From assembly GCA_963422365.1 (NCBI GenBank), contig OY729426.1, positions 2,080,001 to 2,144,000 of the forward strand: 64,000 nucleotides of DNA. The letters run 5' to 3'. Below the pieces are notes generated by a model. That model made no database searches, was not told the DNA's origin, and saw nothing but the letters and a program-made list of their open reading frames with translations. The DNA is from Nitrospirales bacterium (GTDB lineage Bacteria; Nitrospirota; Nitrospiria; Nitrospirales; UBA8639). The translations under genes and the position numbers were made by a program. This document shows positions 12,000 through 46,351 of this stretch, piece after piece (the first letter of the stretch is position 1; every line of letters starts with the position of its first letter).

Positions 12000-12429
12000 A
12001 ACGAAGCCCCTTCTCCTGTAATCGCCTTCTGCGACGTATGTAGCCGATATAGCCGAACAAAAATAATTGTGAATCCGAACAAACTAATGGCGAATGCCAT
12101 GGAAATTTCAGCCGATTTTCTGGCGCCTGAGCCCCTCTCACGACAGATCGAAGATCCTGACTCGTAGTGACCTTGATTCTCATGACGCTGATACGCTCGC
12201 TGACCGATCTCCGACGAAACACCTGAGCGTCGAGGCTGGGACGCTGTGGCAGGCCGTTGTGAACGGTCATCTAGAAAACTCTCCATCGGGCTCCGCAACA
12301 TTAAAAAACGGATGTAAATCCGTAAGCCCCAGCCAGGTTGCCGTCAAATAGCCGGGCTAACGGCAAGGCCTGCTGGTTTGGCCAACCTGGCGAGCCGGCT
12401 TTCCGCACGACGGGTCCTGCCGGGGTGGG

Positions 12430-15400
12430 TTAGAAGCGGAAGGCCCCGGTCAACCCGACGCGGGACTCGGCGGGGGCGCCGGGGCGACGCGTCTGCTCGG
12501 TGAAGAGCGCCGCCTCCAGCCCGTGGGCCCAGCCCGGCACTGCCAGCCGCAGGCCCCCGTGCAGCCGCTGGGCCTGCCCGTCACCCAGACTCAGTTCTCC
12601 GTAGGGCGTCAGCCGGCCCCACCCGTCCCAGACCCTCAGGCCGTAGCCCAACTCCACGTCCAGCCGATCCGGCACCGCCCCCGGGCCCGCCCGTCCCCCA
12701 CTCACCCCACCCGGCAGGGCCCCCGGCTCGCTCTCCCACATCGCCTCCAGCCCGCTCCCCGCCTGACCCCAGACCGGCGTCAGGGAAAAGGCCGGCCCCA
12801 GCCCCGCCTCGCCCGGCGCAACCCGCGCGCTGACACTCGCCCCCCACGCTTCAAAGCCCGCCGCCTGGTGGGCCGCCAGCCAGCGCCCCTGCCCCGTCAC
12901 CGAGACCCCCAGCGCCGGCTGCTCATACGCTAGCCCCGCCCCCACCTCGAGGCCCACACCCGTCTCCGCGTCACCCCCGTCCAGCCGCCCGCCGATCTCC
13001 AGGCTCGGCTGCAGCCGGTGCCCCGCCGCCCACGCCCAGGCCGTCTGCCCCGTCAGCATGAGTCGCAGCCGCTGCACCGCCGCGTCCGCCGCCGGAAGGC
13101 CCGGGACTGCCTCCGAGTCCATCCAGACTCCGACAGCGTCGGTTTTGAGCGACAGGGCCACAGCCCCAACCGAGGACAGGGCCCCCCGTGCCCCCACCGC
13201 CCCCATCCGCATCCCTACGTCGGTCTCCACCTCACCCCGCTTGTCCTTGAGCTGCAACTCGCCCCAGCCCACCCCGACCACGCCCCAGACTTCCATGTCT
13301 TCGTCCACTGCCCAGCGCAGGTAGGGATACAGGCTGGTTACTGCTGACCGCACATCGCCCCGGCCGGCCTCTGGCCCAACCGCGAACCGGCCCCGGCCTA
13401 CGCTATGCGAAACGGCCAGGCCGGCCAGCCCCCAGGGATCGGCGTAGTCCACCCCCACCCAGCCGGACACCACATCCCCCTCCAGCGCCAGCCGGTCCCC
13501 CCGGAATCCCCCCGCCGCCCCCTTCGCCCAGAGCGTCCAGAGACCGGCCGGCTCCGCCGCCTCCGCCTCACCCGCGCCCACAGCCCCAGACCACGCAACC
13601 GCACTGCCCAGCAGAACCTCCCGCACCGAGCGGCTCGAGGCCACTGCCCGCCGGCGCCGCCCAGGCCCGCTACCGGCCAGCTCATCGCCCCGGCCCCCAC
13701 CGCCCCACTCGCCACGGGCTCCCGGCCCCGCCGTGTCGTCCCCCGCCGCCGCCCTGAGCGTCACCGGCCGCCCGCCCAGCGTCACCCGCGTGCCCAGCCC
13801 CGCCGGCCCCCCCATAAGCCGCTCCCCGATGACTGCCACCGCCTGGCTCGCCATCGTGCGCCCAAACCGCCCTAGCCAGTGCGTCGAGACCTCGGCTCGA
13901 GCCGTGTCGCTGACAATGGGGACAAACGCCTGGAATGGCGAAAACTTGCTGGTCGCGCCGCAGACCGCGCTAGGCTGCGCCCCGCCCACAAGCGGCAACG
14001 CCGCCCAGCGGGCAGTACCCGCCTCATAGTGGTACACCGCCACTCCGTCGGCCGGCTCGCCCAGGGGCAGACACACCGTCGCAGTGGCTCCCCCAGGGAA
14101 CGCGGAGAGCCGACCCTTGTTCAGGCTGATGTCCACAGCCGGCGAGACCCGTCGGTAGCCCGGCTGGGCCGGCAAATCCGTTGGGGCTCGCTTCACCGTG
14201 ATCGTGGTAATCGCCTCACCCCCCAGCTGCTCTAGCGGCAGCGTGAGCCCGAGACCCGCCGGCGCCCCCTGCTCTACCTCCAGCGTGATCCGCTGGCCAC
14301 GGCTCACAACAACCTCACCCGCCCGCAGGGGCGCAAACCTCACGTGCCCATCCTGCTCAGCAACCGACACCAACACCCTGATCGTTACCGCCGCCGCCGC
14401 CGAACGCTCGCCGTGCGTATCCGTGACCGTCAGGGCAAAGGTCAGGGCAATGGTCTTAGCCAGATCGCTCGGCGCCGTGAAGCTCGGGCGGACCGTCTCC
14501 GCACCCTCCAGCTTGATCTTCGGCGCGGCAGCCGCCTCGACCGGCTCCCAGGCATAGCTCAGCCCCTCGCCCTCCGGGTCGCGGCTCCCCGAGCCGTCAA
14601 GCGTGACCCGCACACCCTGGGCCACCGTCAAGCCCTCCCCGGCATGCGCGACCGGCGGGTCGTTCCCATCGGTCACCGTGACCACAATGGTCTGTTCAAG
14701 CGTCTTCTCTCCCTCCCCCGTTTGGACAACGGCGGTCACGCCCACAATGTACTGGTTGTTGCCCGCGTCGTTCACAGGGTCCGTACTGGCCTCGTCGGCC
14801 GGAGTCTCGAAGTCGGGCACAGCCCTGAAGGTCAGCACCCCCGTGGCAGGGTCCACCTCGAACTGCTCACGATCAACCCCGCCGACAATGGCATAGGTCA
14901 CAGCCTCGCCCCCCACGGCCAGCACCGTGCCAACAGCACCCTGGTTCTCCGGCACCTCGAACACGGCAGGGCTGACAATCGCCGCCTCGTCGTCGTCAAT
15001 ATTGGTGACGGCAACGTCACTCGCGTCAAGCCCGTTGTAGGTGGCATCCGAACTCGCAGCCGCGGCCAGTACGATCCTGTAGGCCTGGTCGCCATCGTCC
15101 ACCTCGTCATCCACGCCGGTGACCGTGACCGGGGTCGGCTGGTTCCAGGTGGAAGGGGTGAAGGTCAGTGAGGCCGGGAAAACCGTGCCTTCGCCAGTGT
15201 CGGAACTGGTGACGGTGATGCTGACCTGCTCCCTCGGCTGGCTGTCCAAAACGACGCTGATGGTGTCACTACCGCCACCTTCCGTGGTGGCGGTGCCGCC
15301 ACCAGTCTCGGACACCGTGACGCCGGCAGTGTCGTTATCGGTCAGGGTCACACTGACGCCGGTAATGCCCACCGAACCGTAGCCGCCCCCGGAGACTGCA

Positions 15401-18400
15401 TGGGTGATGGTCGTGCTTCTCTCCCCATCGGTCTCGTCATCCACCCCGGTGACGGTGATGGTTTGTACGGTGTTCCAGTTGGCGCTGGTGAAGGTCAGGG
15501 AGGCAGACACGGTCGCCACGCCGGTATGACCGCTGGTCGGGGTGACGGTGACGGCGCCACTCGGCCGGGTGTTGAGCACTACGGTGTAGGTGGTGCTGCG
15601 CCCAGCGCTGGCTTCGGTGACCGTGACACTGGTCTCGGATAACGTGACGCCGGCGGTGTCGTCATCGGTCAGCGTGACACTGACGCTGGGAACACTCACT
15701 GAAGCATAGCCACCCCCGGTGATTGCATGGCTGATGGTCGTGCTTCTCTCGGCATCGGTCTCGTCATCCACCCCGGTGACGGTGACGGGCTGCGCCGTGT
15801 CCCAGTTGCCGGTGGTGAAGGTGAGCGAGGCCGGGGAGACCGTAGCCACGTCGGTATCGCCACTGGCGGGCGTGAGAGTGACGGTGCCCGTCGGCTGGCT
15901 TTGCAGGCCCACACGGTAGGTGGCCGTGTGGCCGCTGCCGCTGGCCTCGGTGACCGTGACGCCCGTCTCGGACACGGTGACGCCGGCCCCGTCGTCATCG
16001 ATGAGGGTCACCGTCACGTCCGGGATGCTCACCGAGTCGTAGCCACCCCCGGTGATTGTATGGGTGATGGTCGTGCTTCTCTCCGCATCGGTCTCGTCAT
16101 CCACCCCGGTGACGGTGACGGGCTGCGCCGTGTCCCAGTTGCCGGTGGTGAAGGTCAGCGAGGCCGGGGAGACGGTGGCGACAGAGTTATCACCGCTGGC
16201 GGGCGTGATGGTGACGGTGCCCGTCGGCTGGCTTTGCAGGCCCACACGGTAGGTGGCCGTGTGGCCGCTGCCGCTGGCCTCGGTGACCGTGACGCCCGTC
16301 TCGGACACGGTGACGCCGGCCCCGTCGTCATCGATGAGGGTCACCGTCACGTCCGGGATGCTCACCGAGTCGTAGCCACCCCCGGTGATTGCATGGCTGA
16401 TGGTCGTGCTTCTCTCCGCATCGGTCTCGTCATCCACCCCGGTGACGGTGACGGGCTGCGCCGTGTCCCAGTTGCCGGTGGTGAAGGTCAGCGAGGCCGG
16501 GGAGACGGTGGCGACAGAGTTATCACCGCTGGCGGGCGTGAGAGTGACGGTGCCCGTCGGCTGGCTTTGCAGGCCCACACGGTAGGTGGCCGTGTGGCCG
16601 CTGCCGCTGGCCTCGGTGACCGTGACGCCCGTCTCGGACACGGTGACGCCGGCCCCGTCGTCATCGATGAGGGTCACCGTCACGTCCGGGATGCTCACCG
16701 AGTCGTAGCCACCCCCGGTGATTGCATGGCTGATGGTCGTGCTTCTCTCCGCATCGGTCCGGTCATCCACCCCGGTGACGGTGACGGGCTGCGCCGTGTC
16801 CCAGTTGCCGGTGGTGAAGGTGAGCGAGGCCGGGGAGACCGTAGCCACGTCGGTATCGCCACTGGCAGGGGTGATGGTGACGGTGCCCGTCGGCTGGCTT
16901 TGCAGGCCCACGCGGTAGGTGGCCGTGTGGCCGCTGCCGCTGGCCTCGGTGACCGTGACGCCCGCCTCGGACACGGTGGCGCCGGCCCCGTCGTTATCGA
17001 TGAGGGTCACCGTCACGTCGGCAATGCTCACCGAGTCGTAGCCACCCCCGGAGGCTGCATGGCTGATGGTCGTGCTTCTCTCCGCATCGGTCCGGTCATC
17101 CACCCCAGTGACGGTGACGGGCTGCGCCGTGTCCCAGTTGCCGGTGGTGAAGGTGAGCGAGGCCGGGGAGACCGTAGCCACGTCGGTATCGCCACTGGCA
17201 GGGGTGATGGTGACGGTGCCCGTCGGCTGGCTTTGCAGGCCCACACGGTAGGTGGCCGTGTGGCCGCTGCCGCTGGCCTCGGTGACCGTGACGCCCGTCT
17301 CGGACACGGTGACGCCGGCCCCGTCGTCATCGATGAGGGTCACCGTCACGTCCGGGATGCTCACCGAGTCGTAGCCACCCCCGGTGATTGTATGGGTGAT
17401 GGTCGTGCTTCTCTCCGCATCGGTCTCGTCATCCACCCCGGTGACGGTGACGGGCTGCGCCGTGTCCCAGTTGCCGGTGGTGAAGGTCAGCGAGGCCGGG
17501 GAGACGGTGGCGACAGAGTTATCACCGCTGGCGGGCGTGATGGTGACGGTGCCCGTCGGCTGGCTTTGCAGGCCCACACGGTAGGTGGCCGTGTGGCCAC
17601 TGCCGCTGGCCTCGGTGACCGTGACGCCCGTCTCGGACACGGTGACGCCGGCCCCGTCGTCATCGATGAGGGTCACCGTCACGTCCGGGATGCTCACCGA
17701 GTCGTAGCCACCCCCGGTGATTGCATGGCTGATGGTCGTGCTTCTCTCCGCATCGGTCCGGTCATCCACCCCGGTGACGGTGACGGGCTGCGCCGTGTCC
17801 CAGTTGCCGGTGGTGAAGGTGAGCGAGGCCGGGGAGACGGTGGCGACAGAGTTATCACCGCTGGCGGGCGTGAGAGTGACGGTGCCCGTCGGCTGGCTTT
17901 GCAGGCCCACACGGTAGGTGGCCGTGTGGCCGCTGCCGCTGGCCTCGGTGACCGTGACGCCCGCCTCGGACACCGTGACGCCAGCCCCGTCGTTATCGAT
18001 GAGGGTCACACTGACGCTGGCGATGCGCACCGAGTCGTAGCCGCCCCCAGAGGCTGCATGGGTGATGGTCGTGCTTCTCTCGGCATCGGTCTCGTCATCC
18101 ACCCCGGTGACGGTGACGGGCTGCGCCGTCTTCCAGTTGCCGGTGGTGAAGGTGAGCGAGGCCGGGGAGACCGTAGCCACGTCGGTATCGCCACTGGCGG
18201 GCGTGATGGTGACGGTGCCACTCGGCTGGCTTTGCAGGCCCACACGGTAGGTGGCCGTGTGGCCGCTGCCGCTGGCCTCGGTGACCGTGACGCGGTTCCT
18301 GGATATGGTGACGCCGGCAGTGTCGTCATCGATGAGGGTCACACTGACGCTGGCAATCCTCACCGAGTTGTAGCCACCCCCGGCTGCCGCATGAGTAATG

Positions 18401-21400
18401 GTCGTGGCTCTCTCCGCATCGGTTCGGTCATCCACCCCCGTCACCGTTACCTCCTGCGGCTGATCCCAGTTCGAAGGGGTGAAGGTCAGCGAACCTGATG
18501 GCGTCGCCACATTCGGATTCCTGCTCCTCGGCGTCACTCTCACGCTTCCCCCCCCGGTCGGTTTGCTGGTCAACACCATCGTGTAGGTCGCCGTCCGCCC
18601 CGCTTTCGTCACCGTTACACTCGACGTAGAAATCGTGACGCCAGCGACGTCATCATCTCTGAGTGACACCGCCACATTCGCGATGCGCACCGGGTTATAG
18701 CCACCACCGCTTACGGTATGGGTAATGCTGGTGCTTCTATCGGTATCAAAGTCGTCATCCACCCCGGTGACGGTGACAGTCTGCGCCGTGTCCCAGTTGC
18801 CGGCGGTGAAGGTCAGGGGCGCGGAGACCATGGCCACGTTAATGTCGCCGCTGCGGGGGGTGATGGTGACATGGCCCGAGGGCCGGCTGTCCAGGACTAC
18901 GCGGTAGGTGGCGGTGCCGCCATCCTCGTCAACCGTGACCGCACTCTCAGACAGTGTCACGCCGGCCCCGTCGTCATCAATCAAGGTCACCGCCACATCC
19001 GCCCCACTGACCGAACCATAGCCACCGCCTGAAGCACTATGGGTAATGCTCGTGCTTCTGTCGGTATCAATGTCGTCATCCACCCCGGTGACGGTGACGG
19101 GCTGCGGGGTCTTCCAGTTGGATGAAGTGAAGGTCAGTGAGGCCGGAGAAACGGTGGCCACAGAGTCGTCACCGCTGGCAGGGGTCACGGTAACGTTGCC
19201 CGAGGGCTGGCTTTGCAGGACCACGCGGTAGGTGGCCGTGTGCCCCGAACCACGGGCCTCGGTCACGGTTATCGCACCAGGCGATGCCGTCACACCAACG
19301 TCGTCGTCATCTGTATTGATCGCCAGAACGTCCGCCGGATCGAACCCGTTATAGTTCACGTCCATGCTCACCGCCGCCGCCAGCCGAATGGTGTAACGCC
19401 GATCTCCATCAGCCCGGTCGTCATCCTTGCCCGTGACGGTGACAGTCTGCGCCGTGTCCCAGTTGCCGGACGTGAATACAAGGCGGCTCTTGTCAACCGT
19501 GCCTTCACTCGGGTCGGAACTGGAGACAGCAATGGTGACTGTGGCGCTCGGCTGGCTGCCCAGGGCTACCCTAAAACGGCCCCTGCCCCCACCCTCCGTG
19601 GTCGTCACGCTGCTCACAGATACCGTCACCTCAGCCACGTCATTGTCTGTGTTGGTCGCCGGAATGTCCGCCGGATCGAGCCCGTTATAGTTCATGTCCG
19701 CGCTCACCGCCGGCCCCAGCCGAATGGTGTAGTCCTGATCCCTATCAGCCAGCACGTCATCCTCCCCCGTCACCGTCACCTCCTGTGGCTGATCCCAATC
19801 GCCGGACGTAAAGGTCAAAGACACCGGGGCCACCTTGCCTTCACCAGGGTCGGAACTGGTTACGGCGATGGTGACGGCCGCAACCGGCCGGCTACCCAGC
19901 GCTACCCTAAAACGGCCGCTGCCCCCACCCTCCGTGGTCATCACGCGCCCGCCCCCAGATACCCTCACTTCAACCGCATCATCGTCTTTGTTGGTCGCCG
20001 GAACAGCCGCCGCGAACCCGCGATAGTGCATGTCCGCGCTCACTGCCGGCCCCAGCCGAATGGTGTAGGACTGATCGCCATCGTCCAGATCGTCGTCCTC
20101 CCCAGTTACGACCAATACCTTTTGTTCGCCCCAGCCCGCGGGCGTAAAGGTCAGAGACGCCGGGGCCACCCTGCCTTCAGTAGTGTCGGAACTGGTTACG
20201 GCGATGGTGACGGCCGCGGTCGGCCGTCTCGTCAACCTCATAGATAGGAATTCCTGTTGCCCGCCCTCGGAAGTCTCCAGCTTGCTCTTCGACAGGATTA
20301 ATCCGGGCCCTTTATCGTCATCAACGTTGGTGACTCTGATGTCTTTCGGATCAATGCCGCGGTAGCCGGCATCGGCGCTGACAGCCGCGGCCAGTACGAT
20401 GGTGTAGGACCGATCACCATCTTCAATCCGGTCATTCACCCCGGTGACGGTGACCGTCTGTGCGGTGTTCCAGTTGTCGGACGTGAATACCAGGCGGCTC
20501 TTGTCAACCGTGCCTTCACTCGGGTCGGAACTGGTTACGGCGATGCTGACGTCGGCCGAGGGCGGGGTATCGAGTACTACGGTGAAGGTGGCGGTGCGCC
20601 TAGCACCACTGGCTTCGGTGGTGGTGACGCGGCTCTCGGACACGGTGACACCGGCCTTGTCGTTATCGATGAGGGTCACCGTCACGTCGGGGATGCTCAC
20701 CGAGTCGTAGCCGCCCCCGGCTGCCTGATGGGTGATGGTCGTACGGCGATCCGTGTTGATCCGGTCATCCACCCCGGTGACGGTAACTTGCTGTGCAGTT
20801 TCCCAATTATCGGTGGTGAAGGTGAGCGAGGCCGGGGAGACGGTGGCGACAGAGTTAGCACCGCTGGTGGGGGTGAGAGTGACGTCGCCCGTCGGCTGGC
20901 TTTGCAGGCCCACGCGGTAGGTGGCCGTGTGGCCGCTGCCGCTGGCCTCGGTGACCGTGACGCGGCTTTTGGACACGGTGACGCCGGCAGTGTCGTCATC
21001 GGTCAGCGTGACGCCCACGCTGGCAATCCTCACCGAGTCGTAGCCGCCGCCGGAAGCCCTATGGCTAATGGTGGTGGTTCTATCTCCTGTATCAATGTCG
21101 TCATGAATGCCGGTGACGGTGACGGGCTGCGGTAGGTACCAGTCGGTGATGGTGAAGGTCAGGGGCGCGGAGACTGTGGCCACGTTAATGTCGTCACTGC
21201 GGGGGGTGATGGTGACGGTGTTGGTCGGCGAGGTCTTGAGTACGACGGTGTAGGTGACGGTGCGCCCGGCACCAGTGGCTTCGGTCACGAGCACACTGTT
21301 GGTGGAGACGGTAACGCCCACGGTGTCGTCATCAACGTTGATGACGGCTATATCGTTCGGATCAACGCCGTTGTAGTTGGCATCGGTGCTGGTGGCCGCG

Positions 21401-24400
21401 GCCAGTACGATGGTGTAGGACTGATCGCCATCTTCAAGCCTGTCATCCACCCCGGTGACGGTGACTATCTGCGCGGCATCCCAGTTGGCAGCAGTGAAGG
21501 TCAGCGATGACGGGGTTACTTTGCCTTCACTTCCGTCGGAACTGGATACACCAATGGTGACGGCCGCCGTCGGCTGGGTATCGAGTACTACAATGAAGGT
21601 GTCGCTACCGCCGGCCTCGGTGGTGACGGTGCTGCCACCGGTCTCGGTGACCGTGACGCCCGCCTCGGACACGGTGGCGCCGGCCCCGTCGTTATCGATG
21701 AGGGTCACACTGACGCTGGCGATGCGCACCGAGTCGTAGCCGCCCCCAGAGGCTGCATGGGTGATGGTCGTGCTTCTCTCGGCATCGGTCTCGTCATCCA
21801 CCCCGGTGACGGTGACGGGCTGCGCCGTCTTCCAGTTGCCGGTGGTGAAGGTGAGCGAGGCCGGGGAGACCGTAGCCACGTCGGTATCGCCACTGGCGGG
21901 CGTGATGGTGACGGTGCCACTCGGCTGGCTTTGCAGGCCCACACGGTAGGTGGCCGTGTGGCCGCTGCCGCTGGCCTCGGTGACCGTGACGCGGTTCCTG
22001 GATATGGTGACGCCGGCAGTGTCGTCATCGATGAGGGTCACACTGACGCTGGCAATCCTCACCGAGTTGTAGCCACCCCCGGCTGCCGCATGAGTAATGG
22101 TCGTGGCTCTCTCCGCATCGGTTCGGTCATCCACCCCCGTCACCGTTACCTCCTGCGGCTGATCCCAGTTCGAAGGGGTGAAGGTCAGCGAACCTGATGG
22201 CGTCGCCACATTCGGATTCCTGCTCCTCGGCGTCACTCTCACGCTTCCCCCCCCGGTCGGTTTGCTGGTCAACACCATCGTGTAGGTCGCCGTCCGCCCC
22301 GCTTTCGTCACCGTTACACTCGACGTAGAAATCGTGACGCCAGCGACGTCATCATCTCTGAGTGACACCGCCACATTCGCGATGCGCACCGGGTTATAGC
22401 CACCACCGCTTACGGTATGGGTAATGCTGGTGCTTCTATCGGTATCAAAGTCGTCATCCACCCCGGTGACGGTGACAGTCTGCGCCGTGTCCCAGTTGCC
22501 GGCGGTGAAGGTCAGGGGCGCGGAGACCATGGCCACGTTAATGTCGCCGCTGCGGGGGGTGATGGTGACATGGCCCGAGGGCCGGCTGTCCAGGACTACG
22601 CGGTAGGTGGCGGTGCCGCCATCCTCGTCAACCGTGACCGCACTCTCAGACAGTGTCACGCCGGCCCCGTCGTCATCAATCAAGGTCACCGCCACATCCG
22701 CCCCACTGACCGAACCATAGCCACCGCCTGAAGCACTATGGGTAATGCTCGTGCTTCTATCGGTATCGGTACTGTCATCCACCCCGGTGACGGTGACGGG
22801 CTGCGGGGTCTTCCAGTTGGATGAAGTGAAGGTCAGTGAGGCCGGAGAAACGGTGGCCACAGAGTCGTCACCGCTGGCAGGGGTCACGGTAACGTTGCCC
22901 GAGGGCTGGCTTTGCAGGACCACGCGGTAGGTGGCCGTGTGCCCCGAACCACGGGCCTCGGTCACGGTTATCGCACCAGGCGATGCCGTCACACCAACGT
23001 CGTCGTCATCTGTATTGATCGCCAGAACGTCCGCCGGATCGAACCCGTTATAGTTCACGTCCATGCTCACCGCCGCCGCCAGCCGAATGGTGTAACGCCG
23101 ATCTCCATCAGCCCGGTCGTCATCCTTGCCCGTGACGGTGACAGTCTGCGCCGTGTCCCAGTTGCCGGACGTGAATACAAGGCGGCTCTTGTCAACCGTG
23201 CCTTCACTCGGGTCGGAACTGGAGACAGCAATGGTGACTGTGGCGCTCGGCTGGCTGCCCAGGGCTACCCTAAAACGGCCCCTGCCCCCACCCTCCGTGG
23301 TCGTCACGCTGCTCACAGATACCGTCACCTCAGCCACGTCATTGTCTGTGTTGGTCGCCGGAATGTCCGCCGGATCGAGCCCGTTATAGTTCACGTCCGC
23401 GCTCACCGCCGGCCCCAGCCGAATGGTGTAGTCCTGATCCCTATCAGCCAGCACGTCATCCTCCCCCGTCACCGTCACCTCCTGTGGCTGATCCCAATCG
23501 CCGGACGTAAAGGTCAAAGACGCCGGGGCCACCTTGCCTTCACCAGGGTCGGAACTGGTTACGGCGATGGTGACGGCCGCAACCGGCCGGCTACCCAGCG
23601 CTACCCTAAAACGGCCGCTGCCCCCACCCTCCGTGGTCATCACGCGCCCGCCCCCAGATACCCTCACTTCAACCGCATCATCGTCTTTGTTGGTCGCCGG
23701 AACAGCCGCCGCGAACCCGCGATAGTGCATGTCCGCGCTCACTGCCGGCCCCAGCCGAATGGTGTAGGACTGATCGCCATCGTCCAGATCGTCGTCCTCC
23801 CCAGTTACGACCAATACCTTTTGTTCGCCCCAGCCCGCGGGCGTAAAGGTCAGAGACGCCGGGGCCACCCTGCCTTCAGTAGTGTCGGAACTGGTTACGG
23901 CGATGGTGACGGCCGCGGTCGGCCGTCTCGTCAACCTCATAGATAGGAATTCCTGTTGCCCGCCCTCGGAAGTCTCCAGCTTGCTCTTCGACAGGATTAA
24001 TCCGGGCCCTTTATCGTCATCAACGTTGGTGACTCTGATGTCTTTCGGATCAATGCCGCGGTAGCCGGCATCGGCGCTGACAGCCGCGGCCAGTACGATG
24101 GTGTAGGACCGATCACCATCTTCAATCCGGTCATTCACCCCGGTGACGGTGACCGTCTGTGCGGTGTTCCAGTTGTCGGACGTGAATACCAGGCGGCTCT
24201 TGTCAACCGTGCCTTCACTCGGGTCGGAACTGGTTACGGCGATGCTGACGTCGGCCGAGGGCGGGGTATCGAGTACTACGGTGAAGGTGGCGGTGCGCCT
24301 AGCACCACTGGCTTCGGTGGTGGTGACGCGGCTCTCGGACACGGTGACACCGGCCTTGTCGTTATCGATGAGGGTCACCGTCACGTCGGGGATGCTCACC

Positions 24401-25557
24401 GAGTCGTAGCCGCCCCCGGCTGCCTGATGGGTGATGGTCGTACGGCGATCCGTGTTGATCCGGTCATCCACCCCGGTGACGGTAACTTGCTGTGCAGTTT
24501 CCCAATTATCGGTGGTGAAGGTGAGCGAGGCCGGGGAGACGGTGGCGACAGAGTTAGCACCGCTGGTGGGGGTGAGAGTGACGTCGCCCGTCGGCTGGCT
24601 TTGCAGGCCCACGCGGTAGGTGGCCGTGTGGCCGCTGCCGCTGGCCTCGGTGACCGTGACGCGGCTTTTGGACACGGTGACGCCGGCAGTGTCGTCATCG
24701 GTCAGCGTGACGCCCACGCTGGCAATCCTCACCGAGTCGTAGCCGCCGCCGGAAGCCCTATGGCTGATGGTGGTGGTTCTATCTCCTGTATCAATGTCGT
24801 CATGAATGCCGGTGACGGTGACGGGCTGCGGTAGGTACCAGTCGGTGATGGTGAAGGTCAGGGGCGCGGAGACTGTGGCCACGTTAATGTCGTCACTGCG
24901 GGGGGTGATGGTGACGGTGTTGGTCGGCGAGGTCTTGAGTACGACGGTGTAGGTGACGGTGCGCCCGGCACCAGTGGCTTCGGTCACGAGCACACTGTTG
25001 GTGGAGACGGTAACGCCCACGGTGTCGTCATCAACGTTGATGACGGCTATATCGTTCGGATCAACGCCGTTGTAGTTGGCATCGGTGCTGGTGGCCGCGG
25101 CCAGTACGATGGTGTAGGACTGATCGCCATCTTCAAGCCTGTCATCCACCCCGGTGACGGTGACTATCTGCGCGGCATCCCAGTTGGCAGCAGTGAAGGT
25201 CAGCGATGACGGGGTTACTTTGCCTTCACTTCCGTCGGAACTGGATACACCAATGGTGACGGCCGCCGTCGGCTGGGTATCGAGTACTACAATGAAGATG
25301 TCGCTACCGCCGGCCTCGGTGGTGACGGTGCTGCCACCGGTCTCGGTGACCGTGACGCCGGGGGTGATATTCGCATGGGCCGGCAGTGCGCAGATGGTAC
25401 AGAGGGTCAGGCCCAGTATAGCGGCGAGGTGCCGCAGGTGTTGACGAGGCTTGAAGGCGTTAGTCCGCCGAACAGGAGTTTCGGGGGGGGTAACGAAGGA
25501 CGCGGTGAGAGCCCGGGGAACAGGTGCGAGAATCCAAATAACCAGGGCTATCCACAT
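12430..25557 (-). CDS. Giant repeat adhesin / autotransporter-like surface protein (4375 aa)
   Basis: Leader ending LCTICALPAHA; about 31 repeats of ~110 aa with LTFT..NW...Q.VTVTGVDD (Calx-beta/Ig-like, Asp-rich); cadherin-like domain (VPENQ...DFETP); PKD-like domain (NDPPVAHAG); C-terminal beta-barrel ending in F (AFRF). Confidence 0.88.
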   Translation of the reverse strand: MWIALVIWILAPVPRALTASFVTPPETPVRRTNAFKPRQHLRHLAAILGLTLCTICALPAHANITPGVTVTETGGSTVTTEAGGSDIFIVVLDTQPTAAVTIGVSSSDGSEGKVTPSSLTFTAANWDAAQIVTVTGVDDRLEDGDQSYTIVLAAATSTDANYNGVDPNDIAVINVDDDTVGVTVSTNSVLVTEATGAGRTVTYTVVLKTSPTNTVTITPRSDDINVATVSAPLTFTITDWYLPQPVTVTGIHDDIDTGDRTTTISHRASGGGYDSVRIASVGVTLTDDDTAGVTVSKSRVTVTEASGSGHTATYRVGLQSQPTGDVTLTPTSGANSVATVSPASLTFTTDNWETAQQVTVTGVDDRINTDRRTTITHQAAGGGYDSVSIPDVTVTLIDNDKAGVTVSESRVTTTEASGARRTATFTVVLDTPPSADVSIAVTSSDPSEGTVDKSRLVFTSDNWNTAQTVTVTGVNDRIEDGDRSYTIVLAAAVSADAGYRGIDPKDIRVTNVDDDKGPGLILSKSKLETSEGGQQEFLSMRLTRRPTAAVTIAVTSSDTTEGRVAPASLTFTPAGWGEQKVLVVTGEDDDLDDGDQSYTIRLGPAVSADMHYRGFAAAVPATNKDDDAVEVRVSGGGRVMTTEGGGSGRFRVALGSRPVAAVTIAVTSSDPGEGKVAPASLTFTSGDWDQPQEVTVTGEDDVLADRDQDYTIRLGPAVSADVNYNGLDPADIPATNTDNDVAEVTVSVSSVTTTEGGGRGRFRVALGSQPSATVTIAVSSSDPSEGTVDKSRLVFTSGNWDTAQTVTVTGKDDDRADGDRRYTIRLAAAVSMDVNYNGFDPADVLAINTDDDDVGVTASPGAITVTEARGSGHTATYRVVLQSQPSGNVTVTPASGDDSVATVSPASLTFTSSNWKTPQPVTVTGVDDSTDTDRSTSITHSASGGGYGSVSGADVAVTLIDDDGAGVTLSESAVTVDEDGGTATYRVVLDSRPSGHVTITPRSGDINVAMVSAPLTFTAGNWDTAQTVTVTGVDDDFDTDRSTSITHTVSGGGYNPVRIANVAVSLRDDDVAGVTISTSSVTVTKAGRTATYTMVLTSKPTGGGSVRVTPRSRNPNVATPSGSLTFTPSNWDQPQEVTVTGVDDRTDAERATTITHAAAGGGYNSVRIASVSVTLIDDDTAGVTISRNRVTVTEASGSGHTATYRVGLQSQPSGTVTITPASGDTDVATVSPASLTFTTGNWKTAQPVTVTGVDDETDAERSTTITHAASGGGYDSVRIASVSVTLIDNDGAGATVSEAGVTVTETGGSTVTTEAGGSDTFIVVLDTQPTAAVTIGVSSSDGSEGKVTPSSLTFTAANWDAAQIVTVTGVDDRLEDGDQSYTIVLAAATSTDANYNGVDPNDIAVINVDDDTVGVTVSTNSVLVTEATGAGRTVTYTVVLKTSPTNTVTITPRSDDINVATVSAPLTFTITDWYLPQPVTVTGIHDDIDTGDRTTTISHRASGGGYDSVRIASVGVTLTDDDTAGVTVSKSRVTVTEASGSGHTATYRVGLQSQPTGDVTLTPTSGANSVATVSPASLTFTTDNWETAQQVTVTGVDDRINTDRRTTITHQAAGGGYDSVSIPDVTVTLIDNDKAGVTVSESRVTTTEASGARRTATFTVVLDTPPSADVSIAVTSSDPSEGTVDKSRLVFTSDNWNTAQTVTVTGVNDRIEDGDRSYTIVLAAAVSADAGYRGIDPKDIRVTNVDDDKGPGLILSKSKLETSEGGQQEFLSMRLTRRPTAAVTIAVTSSDTTEGRVAPASLTFTPAGWGEQKVLVVTGEDDDLDDGDQSYTIRLGPAVSADMHYRGFAAAVPATNKDDDAVEVRVSGGGRVMTTEGGGSGRFRVALGSRPVAAVTIAVTSSDPGEGKVAPVSLTFTSGDWDQPQEVTVTGEDDVLADRDQDYTIRLGPAVSADMNYNGLDPADIPATNTDNDVAEVTVSVSSVTTTEGGGRGRFRVALGSQPSATVTIAVSSSDPSEGTVDKSRLVFTSGNWDTAQTVTVTGKDDDRADGDRRYTIRLAAAVSMDVNYNGFDPADVLAINTDDDDVGVTASPGAITVTEARGSGHTATYRVVLQSQPSGNVTVTPASGDDSVATVSPASLTFTSSNWKTPQPVTVTGVDDDIDTDRSTSITHSASGGGYGSVSGADVAVTLIDDDGAGVTLSESAVTVDEDGGTATYRVVLDSRPSGHVTITPRSGDINVAMVSAPLTFTAGNWDTAQTVTVTGVDDDFDTDRSTSITHTVSGGGYNPVRIANVAVSLRDDDVAGVTISTSSVTVTKAGRTATYTMVLTSKPTGGGSVRVTPRSRNPNVATPSGSLTFTPSNWDQPQEVTVTGVDDRTDAERATTITHAAAGGGYNSVRIASVSVTLIDDDTAGVTISRNRVTVTEASGSGHTATYRVGLQSQPSGTVTITPASGDTDVATVSPASLTFTTGNWKTAQPVTVTGVDDETDAERSTTITHAASGGGYDSVRIASVSVTLIDNDGAGVTVSEAGVTVTEASGSGHTATYRVGLQSQPTGTVTLTPASGDNSVATVSPASLTFTTGNWDTAQPVTVTGVDDRTDAERSTTISHAITGGGYDSVSIPDVTVTLIDDDGAGVTVSETGVTVTEASGSGHTATYRVGLQSQPTGTVTITPASGDNSVATVSPASLTFTTGNWDTAQPVTVTGVDDETDAERSTTITHTITGGGYDSVSIPDVTVTLIDDDGAGVTVSETGVTVTEASGSGHTATYRVGLQSQPTGTVTITPASGDTDVATVSPASLTFTTGNWDTAQPVTVTGVDDRTDAERSTTISHAASGGGYDSVSIADVTVTLIDNDGAGATVSEAGVTVTEASGSGHTATYRVGLQSQPTGTVTITPASGDTDVATVSPASLTFTTGNWDTAQPVTVTGVDDRTDAERSTTISHAITGGGYDSVSIPDVTVTLIDDDGAGVTVSETGVTVTEASGSGHTATYRVGLQSQPTGTVTLTPASGDNSVATVSPASLTFTTGNWDTAQPVTVTGVDDETDAERSTTISHAITGGGYDSVSIPDVTVTLIDDDGAGVTVSETGVTVTEASGSGHTATYRVGLQSQPTGTVTITPASGDNSVATVSPASLTFTTGNWDTAQPVTVTGVDDETDAERSTTITHTITGGGYDSVSIPDVTVTLIDDDGAGVTVSETGVTVTEASGSGHTATYRVGLQSQPTGTVTLTPASGDTDVATVSPASLTFTTGNWDTAQPVTVTGVDDETDAERSTTISHAITGGGYASVSVPSVSVTLTDDDTAGVTLSETSVTVTEASAGRSTTYTVVLNTRPSGAVTVTPTSGHTGVATVSASLTFTSANWNTVQTITVTGVDDETDGERSTTITHAVSGGGYGSVGITGVSVTLTDNDTAGVTVSETGGGTATTEGGGSDTISVVLDSQPREQVSITVTSSDTGEGTVFPASLTFTPSTWNQPTPVTVTGVDDEVDDGDQAYRIVLAAAASSDATYNGLDASDVAVTNIDDDEAAIVSPAVFEVPENQGAVGTVLAVGGEAVTYAIVGGVDREQFEVDPATGVLTFRAVPDFETPADEASTDPVNDAGNNQYIVGVTAVVQTGEGEKTLEQTIVVTVTDGNDPPVAHAGEGLTVAQGVRVTLDGSGSRDPEGEGLSYAWEPVEAAAAPKIKLEGAETVRPSFTAPSDLAKTIALTFALTVTDTHGERSAAAAVTIRVLVSVAEQDGHVRFAPLRAGEVVVSRGQRITLEVEQGAPAGLGLTLPLEQLGGEAITTITVKRAPTDLPAQPGYRRVSPAVDISLNKGRLSAFPGGATATVCLPLGEPADGVAVYHYEAGTARWAALPLVGGAQPSAVCGATSKFSPFQAFVPIVSDTARAEVSTHWLGRFGRTMASQAVAVIGERLMGGPAGLGTRVTLGGRPVTLRAAAGDDTAGPGARGEWGGGGRGDELAGSGPGRRRRAVASSRSVREVLLGSAVAWSGAVGAGEAEAAEPAGLWTLWAKGAAGGFRGDRLALEGDVVSGWVGVDYADPWGLAGLAVSHSVGRGRFAVGPEAGRGDVRSAVTSLYPYLRWAVDEDMEVWGVVGVGWGELQLKDKRGEVETDVGMRMGAVGARGALSSVGAVALSLKTDAVGVWMDSEAVPGLPAADAAVQRLRLMLTGQTAWAWAAGHRLQPSLEIGGRLDGGDAETGVGLEVGAGLAYEQPALGVSVTGQGRWLAAHQAAGFEAWGASVSARVAPGEAGLGPAFSLTPVWGQAGSGLEAMWESEPGALPGGVSGGRAGPGAVPDRLDVELGYGLRVWDGWGRLTPYGELSLGDGQAQRLHGGLRLAVPGWAHGLEAALFTEQTRRPGAPAESRVGLTGAFRF
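15631..17961 (-). repeat. Tandem array of 7 near-identical 333-bp (111-aa) units within the adhesin
   Basis: Shadow ORFs recur at 333-bp period (15719, 16052, 16385, 16718, 17384, 17717); units differ only at a few binary sites. Confidence 0.92.
17962..25359 (-). repeat. Near-perfect 3699-bp (1233-aa, 11 repeat units) direct tandem duplication within the adhesin
   Basis: Copy A 21661-25359, copy B 17962-21660; paired shadow ORFs are offset by exactly 3699 (e.g. 19213/22912, 20444/24143). Confidence 0.95.
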
Positions 25558-45191: not shown

Positions 45192-46205
45192 TTACCATTG
45201 CCATTGTTCAGGCACTCCAGCCCACCAATTTTCAGGGTGTGTCTTTTTCCAGGCTTGCACCTCTAACCATAATTGATTCACGCGAGGCTTATCCAGACGG
45301 TTGGCCAGGCCAGCCACCAAATCATATTGTTGCCGGACCCCTTCATGCAGCAGTTCTTTTGCCATCCTATCCAACAGACCAGGAGGATCAACAAGATCCA
45401 GGGTGCCGCGGTCGACCATGGAAAGTGCCAACTGCCCCACCTTGACCCACTCGTCCCGTTTGGCTAACCACTCCAAATACCCATCCAGCGCATGATATAC
45501 ATAAATGAGATGCACGTAACTTTCGACAGAGGGCGATTGATCGACGTTCATTTGGCAGGCTTCAACCGCACGACGGTAATCCCCGGCAGCCAGATACACT
45601 TTGGCCCGGGCCAATGGAGGTTTGTCAACCGGTAGAAAAGACTTTTCTCTATCATTAATTCTTTTTCGTTCAGCTAAATATTCAAAATATTCATTTTCTA
45701 ATGCCTCTAAAACTGCTGGAAAGTCAGGGTGAATATCAGCTAATGTGCCACCTTGACTAGTTGCCTTATCCTCAAGTTTGTGTAAATTAGCAATGTCTCT
45801 CTGTATATTTTTAATTTTAACTCTAACCTTTCCAGTATCTCGTTCTACTCCTTTAGAGTCTGGTGCATATCTATTTATTGGATTTTTTGGATCAAGACCG
45901 CTTATTCCCTTGAAGTAATTTGGAGGCTTTGGGGCTGCACGATTTTTTCTGCGACTTGCAGCAATTTCTTCATCTGTAATATCTCGCATATTATGATCGA
46001 CAAATTGTCTATAAGAATCTGGCGTTTTCTCATTAAAATAATCTTGCTCCCTATTATAAGCATCTGTGTCTCGACGAAACCTATCAAGCTTCTGAATCGA
46101 GCTTTCCGCAACCGAAACACTTGTTCCGGTTAGACACCATCCGAGAAACACCAACAGAAGACTCAGGTGAATCGTTCGAGACTGACACCAAGTCAGCACG
46201 TTCAT
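45192..46205 (-). CDS. Secreted hypothetical protein (TPR-like helices) carrying a 149-codon AT-rich in-frame insert
   Basis: Signal peptide, then an AT-rich block (45642-46088), then the LARAKVYLAAGDYRRAVEAC helical domain at host-like GC. Confidence 0.7.
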   Translation of the reverse strand: MNVLTWCQSRTIHLSLLLVFLGWCLTGTSVSVAESSIQKLDRFRRDTDAYNREQDYFNEKTPDSYRQFVDHNMRDITDEEIAASRRKNRAAPKPPNYFKGISGLDPKNPINRYAPDSKGVERDTGKVRVKIKNIQRDIANLHKLEDKATSQGGTLADIHPDFPAVLEALENEYFEYLAERKRINDREKSFLPVDKPPLARAKVYLAAGDYRRAVEACQMNVDQSPSVESYVHLIYVYHALDGYLEWLAKRDEWVKVGQLALSMVDRGTLDLVDPPGLLDRMAKELLHEGVRQQYDLVAGLANRLDKPRVNQLWLEVQAWKKTHPENWWAGVPEQWQW

Positions 46206-46351
46206 AACGCCCTCCCCGTCGGTTAAAGTTTCGTCATGCGGTCGAAGACAGAATACTACGTCTCGATCCATGAATGCATGAAGCTTAACTTATTCACAAT
46301 GCTGTGATAAAAATGCTTAAACCTCGCACGCCATACAGCAGGGATTCAACA

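Follow-up and report, generated by a model that had tools for sequence, protein, structure and literature searches.

An AT-rich coding segment lying in frame between the predicted signal peptide and the conserved domain of a Nitrospirales TPR-like protein

A gene for a probably exported protein in a Nitrospirales bacterium carries, in its own reading frame, 462 bp of low-GC coding DNA that is missing from every relative compared. The gene lies within the 64,000-nucleotide stretch of DNA that was analysed (the window), which corresponds to positions 2080001-2144000 of C1, the single 2.50 Mb contig of genome G000 (98.6% complete, overall GC content 53.4%). The best explanation, which we hold with a probability of about 0.6, is one joining by illegitimate recombination, that is, Ku-free break repair or recombination with templated bases at the junctions, followed by selection for frame. 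The capture of a foreign gene fragment is an event of a known type, and there is a small chance that a dedicated capture route was involved.

The host gene (P0003; 45192..46205, minus strand) encodes 337 aa, made up of a probable signal peptide, the insert, and a domain conserved in Nitrospirales that contains a single TPR-like repeat. It is situated upstream of trxA and recN, a gene order that is repeated in metagenome loci, and in the source records its homologues are called hypothetical or 'tetratricopeptide (TPR) repeat protein', the close ones carrying the label of Nitrospira sp. MAGs. Translation likely begins at the ATG at 46205, which gives 337 aa, and a start at 46271 is not favoured, since a Shine-Dalgarno-like GGAGG lies six bases upstream of the former (46211..46215, minus strand) and the orthologues begin at the matching place. 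The first 33 aa (46107..46205, minus strand) are a predicted Sec signal peptide ending in VSVA; the prediction comes from hydropathy (core peak 2.4), and the position of the hydrophobic core and VSVA end is kept across the family. Next is a short host linker, ESSIQK (46089..46106, minus strand), and on the far side of the insert is the conserved C-terminal host domain (45195..45626, minus strand). TPR_1 matched 18 of 27 family members at E<=0.1, and a designed TPR chain matched the host domain with an E of 7e-7. In other families of the order, the domain was matched in 5 of 24 genomes.

In a tree of the conserved core of the host gene, the sister of G000 is G001 (support 100/99). Long alignments totalling 1.6 Mb put the identity of the two genomes at ~92%, and their comparison covered all of G001 (106 stretches). 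The two share 406 of 432 nt in the host domain, identity over the domain is given as 93%, and synteny is as in other family members; the domain is still under purifying selection despite the insert. Its dN/dS against G001 is 0.156 (130-codon core), a value within the range of 0.03-0.19 found for the host core over 12 computed pairs, and in the core the G000 branch has acquired 9 synonymous and 4 non-synonymous changes, the G001 branch 5 and 4, respectively. Genomes of the genus range from 1.9 to 3.2 Mb. The two ends of the G000 contig (C1:1-58353 and 2437343-2495695) overlap by 58 kb at 99.8% identity, indicating a circular assembly that was left untrimmed.

An earlier note, made from the sequence alone, had described an insert of 447 bp at 45642..46088. 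A low-GC core of 149 codons does occupy these positions (minus strand), recognized by its composition and with no homologue found, but the net gain relative to G001 is 462 bp (45627-46088; an alignment gap of 470 versus 8 bases), as a further 15 nt encoding SFLPV (45627..45641, minus strand) is also missing in orthologues. The 447 nt of the core have a GC content of 0.353 and a GC3 of 0.18, against 0.51 and 0.53 in the flanking gene parts, in good agreement with the previous estimate of about 36% and a sharp difference from the flanks; just 0.1% of the 447-nt windows of G000 are equally low in GC. Over the whole insert of 154 codons, GC at the first, second and third codon positions is 0.52/0.36/0.18, and the encoded protein has 37% charged residues and lacks Cys and Trp. 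The segment is open in the frame of the gene, as had been reported for its 149 codons, and none of 20000 base shuffles of the 462 nt stayed open. The codon-position signal and the shuffle result together show the insert to be genuine coding sequence that is still translated in the donor's own frame. The proposal that foreign coding DNA lies in frame after a probable signal peptide is supported.

The proposed boundaries fared less well. A precise insertion bounded by a shared AAG is contradicted by the SFLPV codons: these 15 nt are also missing from orthologues, so the AAG at both ends is not a target duplication. Nor does removal of the insert leave IQK joined to SFLPVDKPP, as had been supposed, because the empty sites read ESSIQQ-VQPPLARAK in G001 and ESSAQK-VRSPLARAK in G005, and host sequence restarts at 45626 in G000, with DKPP facing VQPP. 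Four of the five SFLPV codons have A or T in the third position, which fits the donor. A palindrome with 7-bp arms and a 1-nt centre (45634..45648) spans the 45642/45641 boundary; about 0.025 such palindromes would be expected by chance within 20 nt of either junction, although this is a post hoc and weak test. As the 15 nt complete this palindrome, 45642 may be the true donor end, and the SFLPV nucleotides represent either templated filler or the last part of the donor fragment. A small hairpin, GGTT-GACA-AACC (45619..45630), spans the point where host sequence restarts, and a 6-bp palindrome, AAGCTT (46086..46091), is centred on the upstream junction.

Substitutions are also clustered in the adjoining host bases. 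The last 14 nt of the ESSIQK linker contain three synonymous changes specific to G000 and perhaps one more, and two G000-specific changes are found in the first 4 host nt on the side of the small hairpin. With G005 as the outgroup, this amounts to 5 G000-specific substitutions in 18 junction-side host nt, compared with ~0.6 expected from the 13 such changes in 390 nt of core, a clustering that is a hint only because linker sequences differ throughout the genus. Taken together, the junction palindromes and the clustered changes hint at templated repair. The predicted RNA fold of the insert is no better than those of shuffled sequences (z = -0.27). An 18-nt stretch at 45624-45641 also matches G000 at C1:1325684 (minus strand) with one mismatch, probably by chance or through a shared TTGAC promoter-like word.

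The host domain is present and the insert absent in all 36 genus genomes first compared and in G061 (37/37 in total), in line with the expectation that orthologues would lack the segment. The long insert is thus found in one of 38 genus genomes, and its absence from 37 relatives, with G001 as sister, makes it a gain on the G000 branch. It is single copy in G000 and has no DNA relative in the 37 genus genomes, and no carrier was detected among these, 400 phylum genomes and 10 metagenome loci. All 37 relatives have a short linker at the site, with no long inserts of other kinds. In 15 of them, however, the same linker includes an in-frame REP-like peptide of the GDGPRA type (GDGPRAVP; for example at L003, L005, L006, L008 and L009). 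The repeat responsible is a 26-nt, GTAG-headed palindrome that we take to be a REP, and there are 41 copies in G008, 26 in G002, 31 in G004, 4 in G001 and 1 in G005, along with one REP-like copy in G000 at up to 4 mismatches. Its presence in the linker of so many relatives indicates that the site tolerates insertions. Linker alleles vary throughout the genus and are patchily distributed on the gene tree.

The 3' end of the host gene is variable as well. Charged, in-frame tags of 13-41 aa were seen in 7 of the 36 relatives examined, at loci L163 (G030), L009 (G012) and L019 (G018), and also L004, L008, L013, L023 and L146. In three genomes the tags sit between two copies of the last ~30 bp of the gene, and look-alike C-terminal tags are present in genomes that are not sisters. 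These tags look like products of local duplication, fast divergence and recombination.

Searches for the donor covered both proteins and DNA. A word-index protein search returned no match at E<=1 among proteins of near length and, among longer proteins, only the protein of the host gene itself. No homologue of the insert was found in the phages and plasmids searched, or in the genus genomes and 400 phylum genomes, and Pfam, NCBIfam and PHROGs gave only sub-threshold coiled-coil matches. The best score in the ESM Atlas, 0.75, is a lead only. Two matches were rejected upon inspection. The sole match among 1.84 billion representatives (P0002) is a G5-repeat LPXTG protein with a score summed over six repeats, and the sole match in viral, metagenome and genome contigs falls on the C-terminus of an unrelated, GC-rich protein of 1,000 aa and crosses its stop. 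A match in G017 contains two stops. A search of the literature, mostly of openly accessible papers, found no account of this case.

An orphan lipoprotein-like gene of 347 aa with a low-GC3 core is present elsewhere in G000 (C1:434640-435680; L048:1498-2541, minus strand), between two NADH dehydrogenase-like genes. It is absent from the 37 genus genomes and had no match in the Atlas. Kinship between this gene and the insert, to which it is a helical-hairpin look-alike, was considered and rejected (shuffle p ~0.1), and a two-row profile of the pair brought in nothing further from the 37 genomes.

No dedicated machinery could be linked to the insertion. G000 gave no match to Ku, reverse transcriptase (RT) or, at 98.6% completeness, Y1 transposase/RAYT (PF01797), and none over the cut-off to integron integrase (TIGR02249). 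By eye, the insert has no attC-like ends, and there is only a short imperfect inverted match between its ends in place of terminal inverted repeats. Comparison with the empty sites of G001 and G005 revealed no target-site duplication, the three Rfam matches to the insert were weak and all far below gathering scores, the Hint domain in Pfam gave no match, and the end pattern of the insert was not found in viral contigs. G000 carries three CRISPR arrays, and none of the 128 spacers extracted from them matches the insert (best, 62% identity). The earlier statement that hallmarks of inteins, introns and IS elements are lacking therefore stands, being borne out by end residues, Hint, Rfam, fold, copy number and duplication alike. 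A single event, with no match to a dedicated recombinase or to Ku, is compatible with illegitimate recombination/alternative end-joining.

The in-frame fit had been attributed to an unexplained mechanism, but no special one is needed. G000 and G001 differ by 455 indels measuring 45 bp or longer (terminal overlap excluded), of which 24 rows kept a long open frame, and this insert is the only one of these below 0.42 GC. A genome-wide process of insertion with duplication was considered and discarded, as overlaps were found in only 12 of 541 G000-G001 indel events, mostly paralogues and repeats. Many whole low-GC accessory genes are present in both genomes, showing that DNA of the donor type arrives often. 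Of 8234 low-GC pieces of 462 nt taken from G000, 466 (5.7%) are open in a preset frame, and with a one-in-three chance of a suitable length, some 2% of random captures would fit. Given a singleton event and ~6% of pieces already open, frame selection can explain the fit without a special mechanism.

Several known systems offer partial parallels. In illegitimate recombination and alternative end-joining, donor and target share 1-10 nt of microhomology at the junction. Homology-facilitated illegitimate recombination (HFIR) is usually accompanied by a deletion of about as much as is added, ~1 kb (PMC3240628), and alternative end-joining (A-EJ) is Ku-independent and described as leaving deletions (PMC8071187). 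The insert is alike in being single-copy foreign DNA without target duplication or dedicated recombinase in a host without Ku, but differs in that almost no host DNA was lost and the fusion is perfectly in frame. Rickettsia palindromic elements (RPEs) are described as ~150 bp long, multicopy and palindromic, and as specifying a conserved peptide (PMC10969869). RPEs and intragenic MITEs are alike in outcome only, in that they too insert in frame and extend unrelated proteins by a peptide. The segment in G000 has 462 bp, occurs once, shows no structure and resembles a gene; nearer to the RPE type is the REP-like allele of 26 nt in the relatives. A hypervariable cassette region would be expected to show similar-sized versions at the site, in contrast to the short linker of all 37 relatives, and the other examined Nitrospirales secreted TPR-like proteins encoded upstream of trxA-recN have no long insert. 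Inteins begin with Cys, Ser or Thr, end in HN or HQ before a further Cys, Ser or Thr, and contain a Hint domain. The insert shares with them an in-frame foreign protein of ~150 aa in a conserved gene, but begins LDRF, ends REK or LPV and has no Cys, and so lacks the end residues as well as a Hint match, and it occupies a variable linker rather than a conserved motif. Off-target integration by CRISPR Cas1-Cas2 produces a ~30-37 bp target duplication around a piece of 30-45 bp, unlike the 462 bp seen here with neither duplication nor spacer match.

The insertion is real and not an assembly chimera. Between 98 and 100% of sampled words were found in five sequencing runs from four samples and two studies (no RNA runs were among those listed with sampled words). 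In X3, one 35-kb contig spans the whole 2.5 kb without differences, although this may be the source of the assembly. The check for junction-spanning sequence proposed at the outset was made with public contigs, and it supports both ends: a contig from a different study (X5) bridges 46088 with 172 host bases, and a 151-nt contig from a third study (X6) bridges the 45627/45642 end. No joints skipping the insert and no variant letters in the gene are listed in the X3, X5 and X6 contigs. A chimeric assembly, to which the untrimmed 58-kb overlap and the coincidence of the AAGCTT junction with a restriction site might point, is consequently extremely improbable, with each junction bridged outside the likely source study and no differences seen. 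Across the three studies the insert is identical in the parts covered, with no empty allele listed, which is compatible with recent fixation and with positive selection as well. One 55-nt record of X5 joins 45624-45653 to 25 unrelated bases, 3 bases from the host restart; these bases had no match in G000 or among viral contigs, and the record is most simply a chimeric library molecule.

Positive selection would be central if both ends of the exported protein were variable display sites and the 154-aa segment a selected domain, such as a decoy, binding or shielding module. Such adaptive display would accommodate the patchy linker alleles, the charged C-terminal tags with look-alikes in non-sister genomes, and the lack of a listed empty allele in three studies. 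It is nevertheless unlikely, as a long insert is found in just 1 of 38 genus genomes, the C-terminal tags resemble local duplications of the gene end, and the REP-like repeat that makes up the other linker insert is dispersed genome-wide, numbering 26-41 copies in three genomes, which speaks for tolerance rather than function. There is a rather low probability that the insert predates the separation of G000 from G001, having resided in an unsampled Nitrospirales lineage or hypervariable cassette and been imported by homologous recombination with short flanks. Substitutions do cluster in host bases at both junctions, and recombination among lineages seems to affect gene ends, but the divergent tract extends for only ~14 and 4 nt, beyond which the flanks are close to G001, no carrier appeared in the 37 genus genomes, 400 phylum genomes and 10 metagenome loci, and the relatives show an empty site rather than alternative low-GC versions. 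A non-autonomous mobile element or cassette inserting in frame (MITE/RPE-like, an IS200/IS605 derivative, an integron cassette or a Cas1 off-target product) is highly improbable and largely refuted: the short end palindromes, the weak inverted match between the ends, the branching of an X5 side contig at 45624 and the three CRISPR arrays of G000 are outweighed by single copy number, the absence of target duplication, fold and near-threshold Rfam match, the lack of Y1 transposase, RT and integron integrase matches, the spacers, none of which match, and the absence of the end pattern from viral contigs.

Under the preferred reading, a single illegitimate joining, a fragment of a protein-coding gene from an AT-rich donor would have entered G000 after its split from G001. 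The donor may have been an unsampled phage, mobile element or low-GC microbe. The fragment would have been joined in one homology-independent event into the flexible linker between signal peptide and folded domain, without Ku and with templated synthesis of some bases at the junctions, and no targeting would be required. Because of the conservation of the host gene, an insertion could persist only at a tolerant site, and only if orientation and frame were preserved and its length was a multiple of three; captures that did not fit would be purged. Judging from the sequence, the product is probably an exported protein of 337 aa with a charged, 154-aa passenger ahead of an intact TPR-like domain; export of the passenger is suggested by the predicted signal peptide, its structure is likely helical (by eye), and it is probably neutral or nearly so. 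The result is a clean, dated, natural chimeric gene, whose empty site can be read in a sister genome at ~92% identity, and it offers a test of how domains enter bacterial proteins and of passenger neutrality. By itself, a singleton without donor or machinery does not point to a new system. It is decidedly doubtful that the genus possesses a so far undescribed capture route, independent of Ku and assisted by hairpins or template switching, by which pieces of foreign coding DNA become attached to the ends of an exported protein. If it did, the gene would serve as a scaffold for display, trying out new peptides in its N-terminal linker and at its C-terminus. The 154-aa segment would then be a newborn domain retained by selection, and the branch seen in X5 at 45624 would reflect ongoing activity of the route.

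Two features of G000 unconnected with the host gene were also recorded. A GC-rich island of 14 kb (63-74% GC) lies at 12000-25500 of the window, one of many such islands in the genome, which also contains a GC-rich repeat in 60 copies. In the 99-repeat CRISPR array, the first two spacers (C1:875219 and 875292) match the chromosome perfectly, at 633852-633887 and 691110-691146; one of these targets is within a core-looking ORF, presumably argininosuccinate synthase-like, and the other is within a restriction-endonuclease-like ORF.
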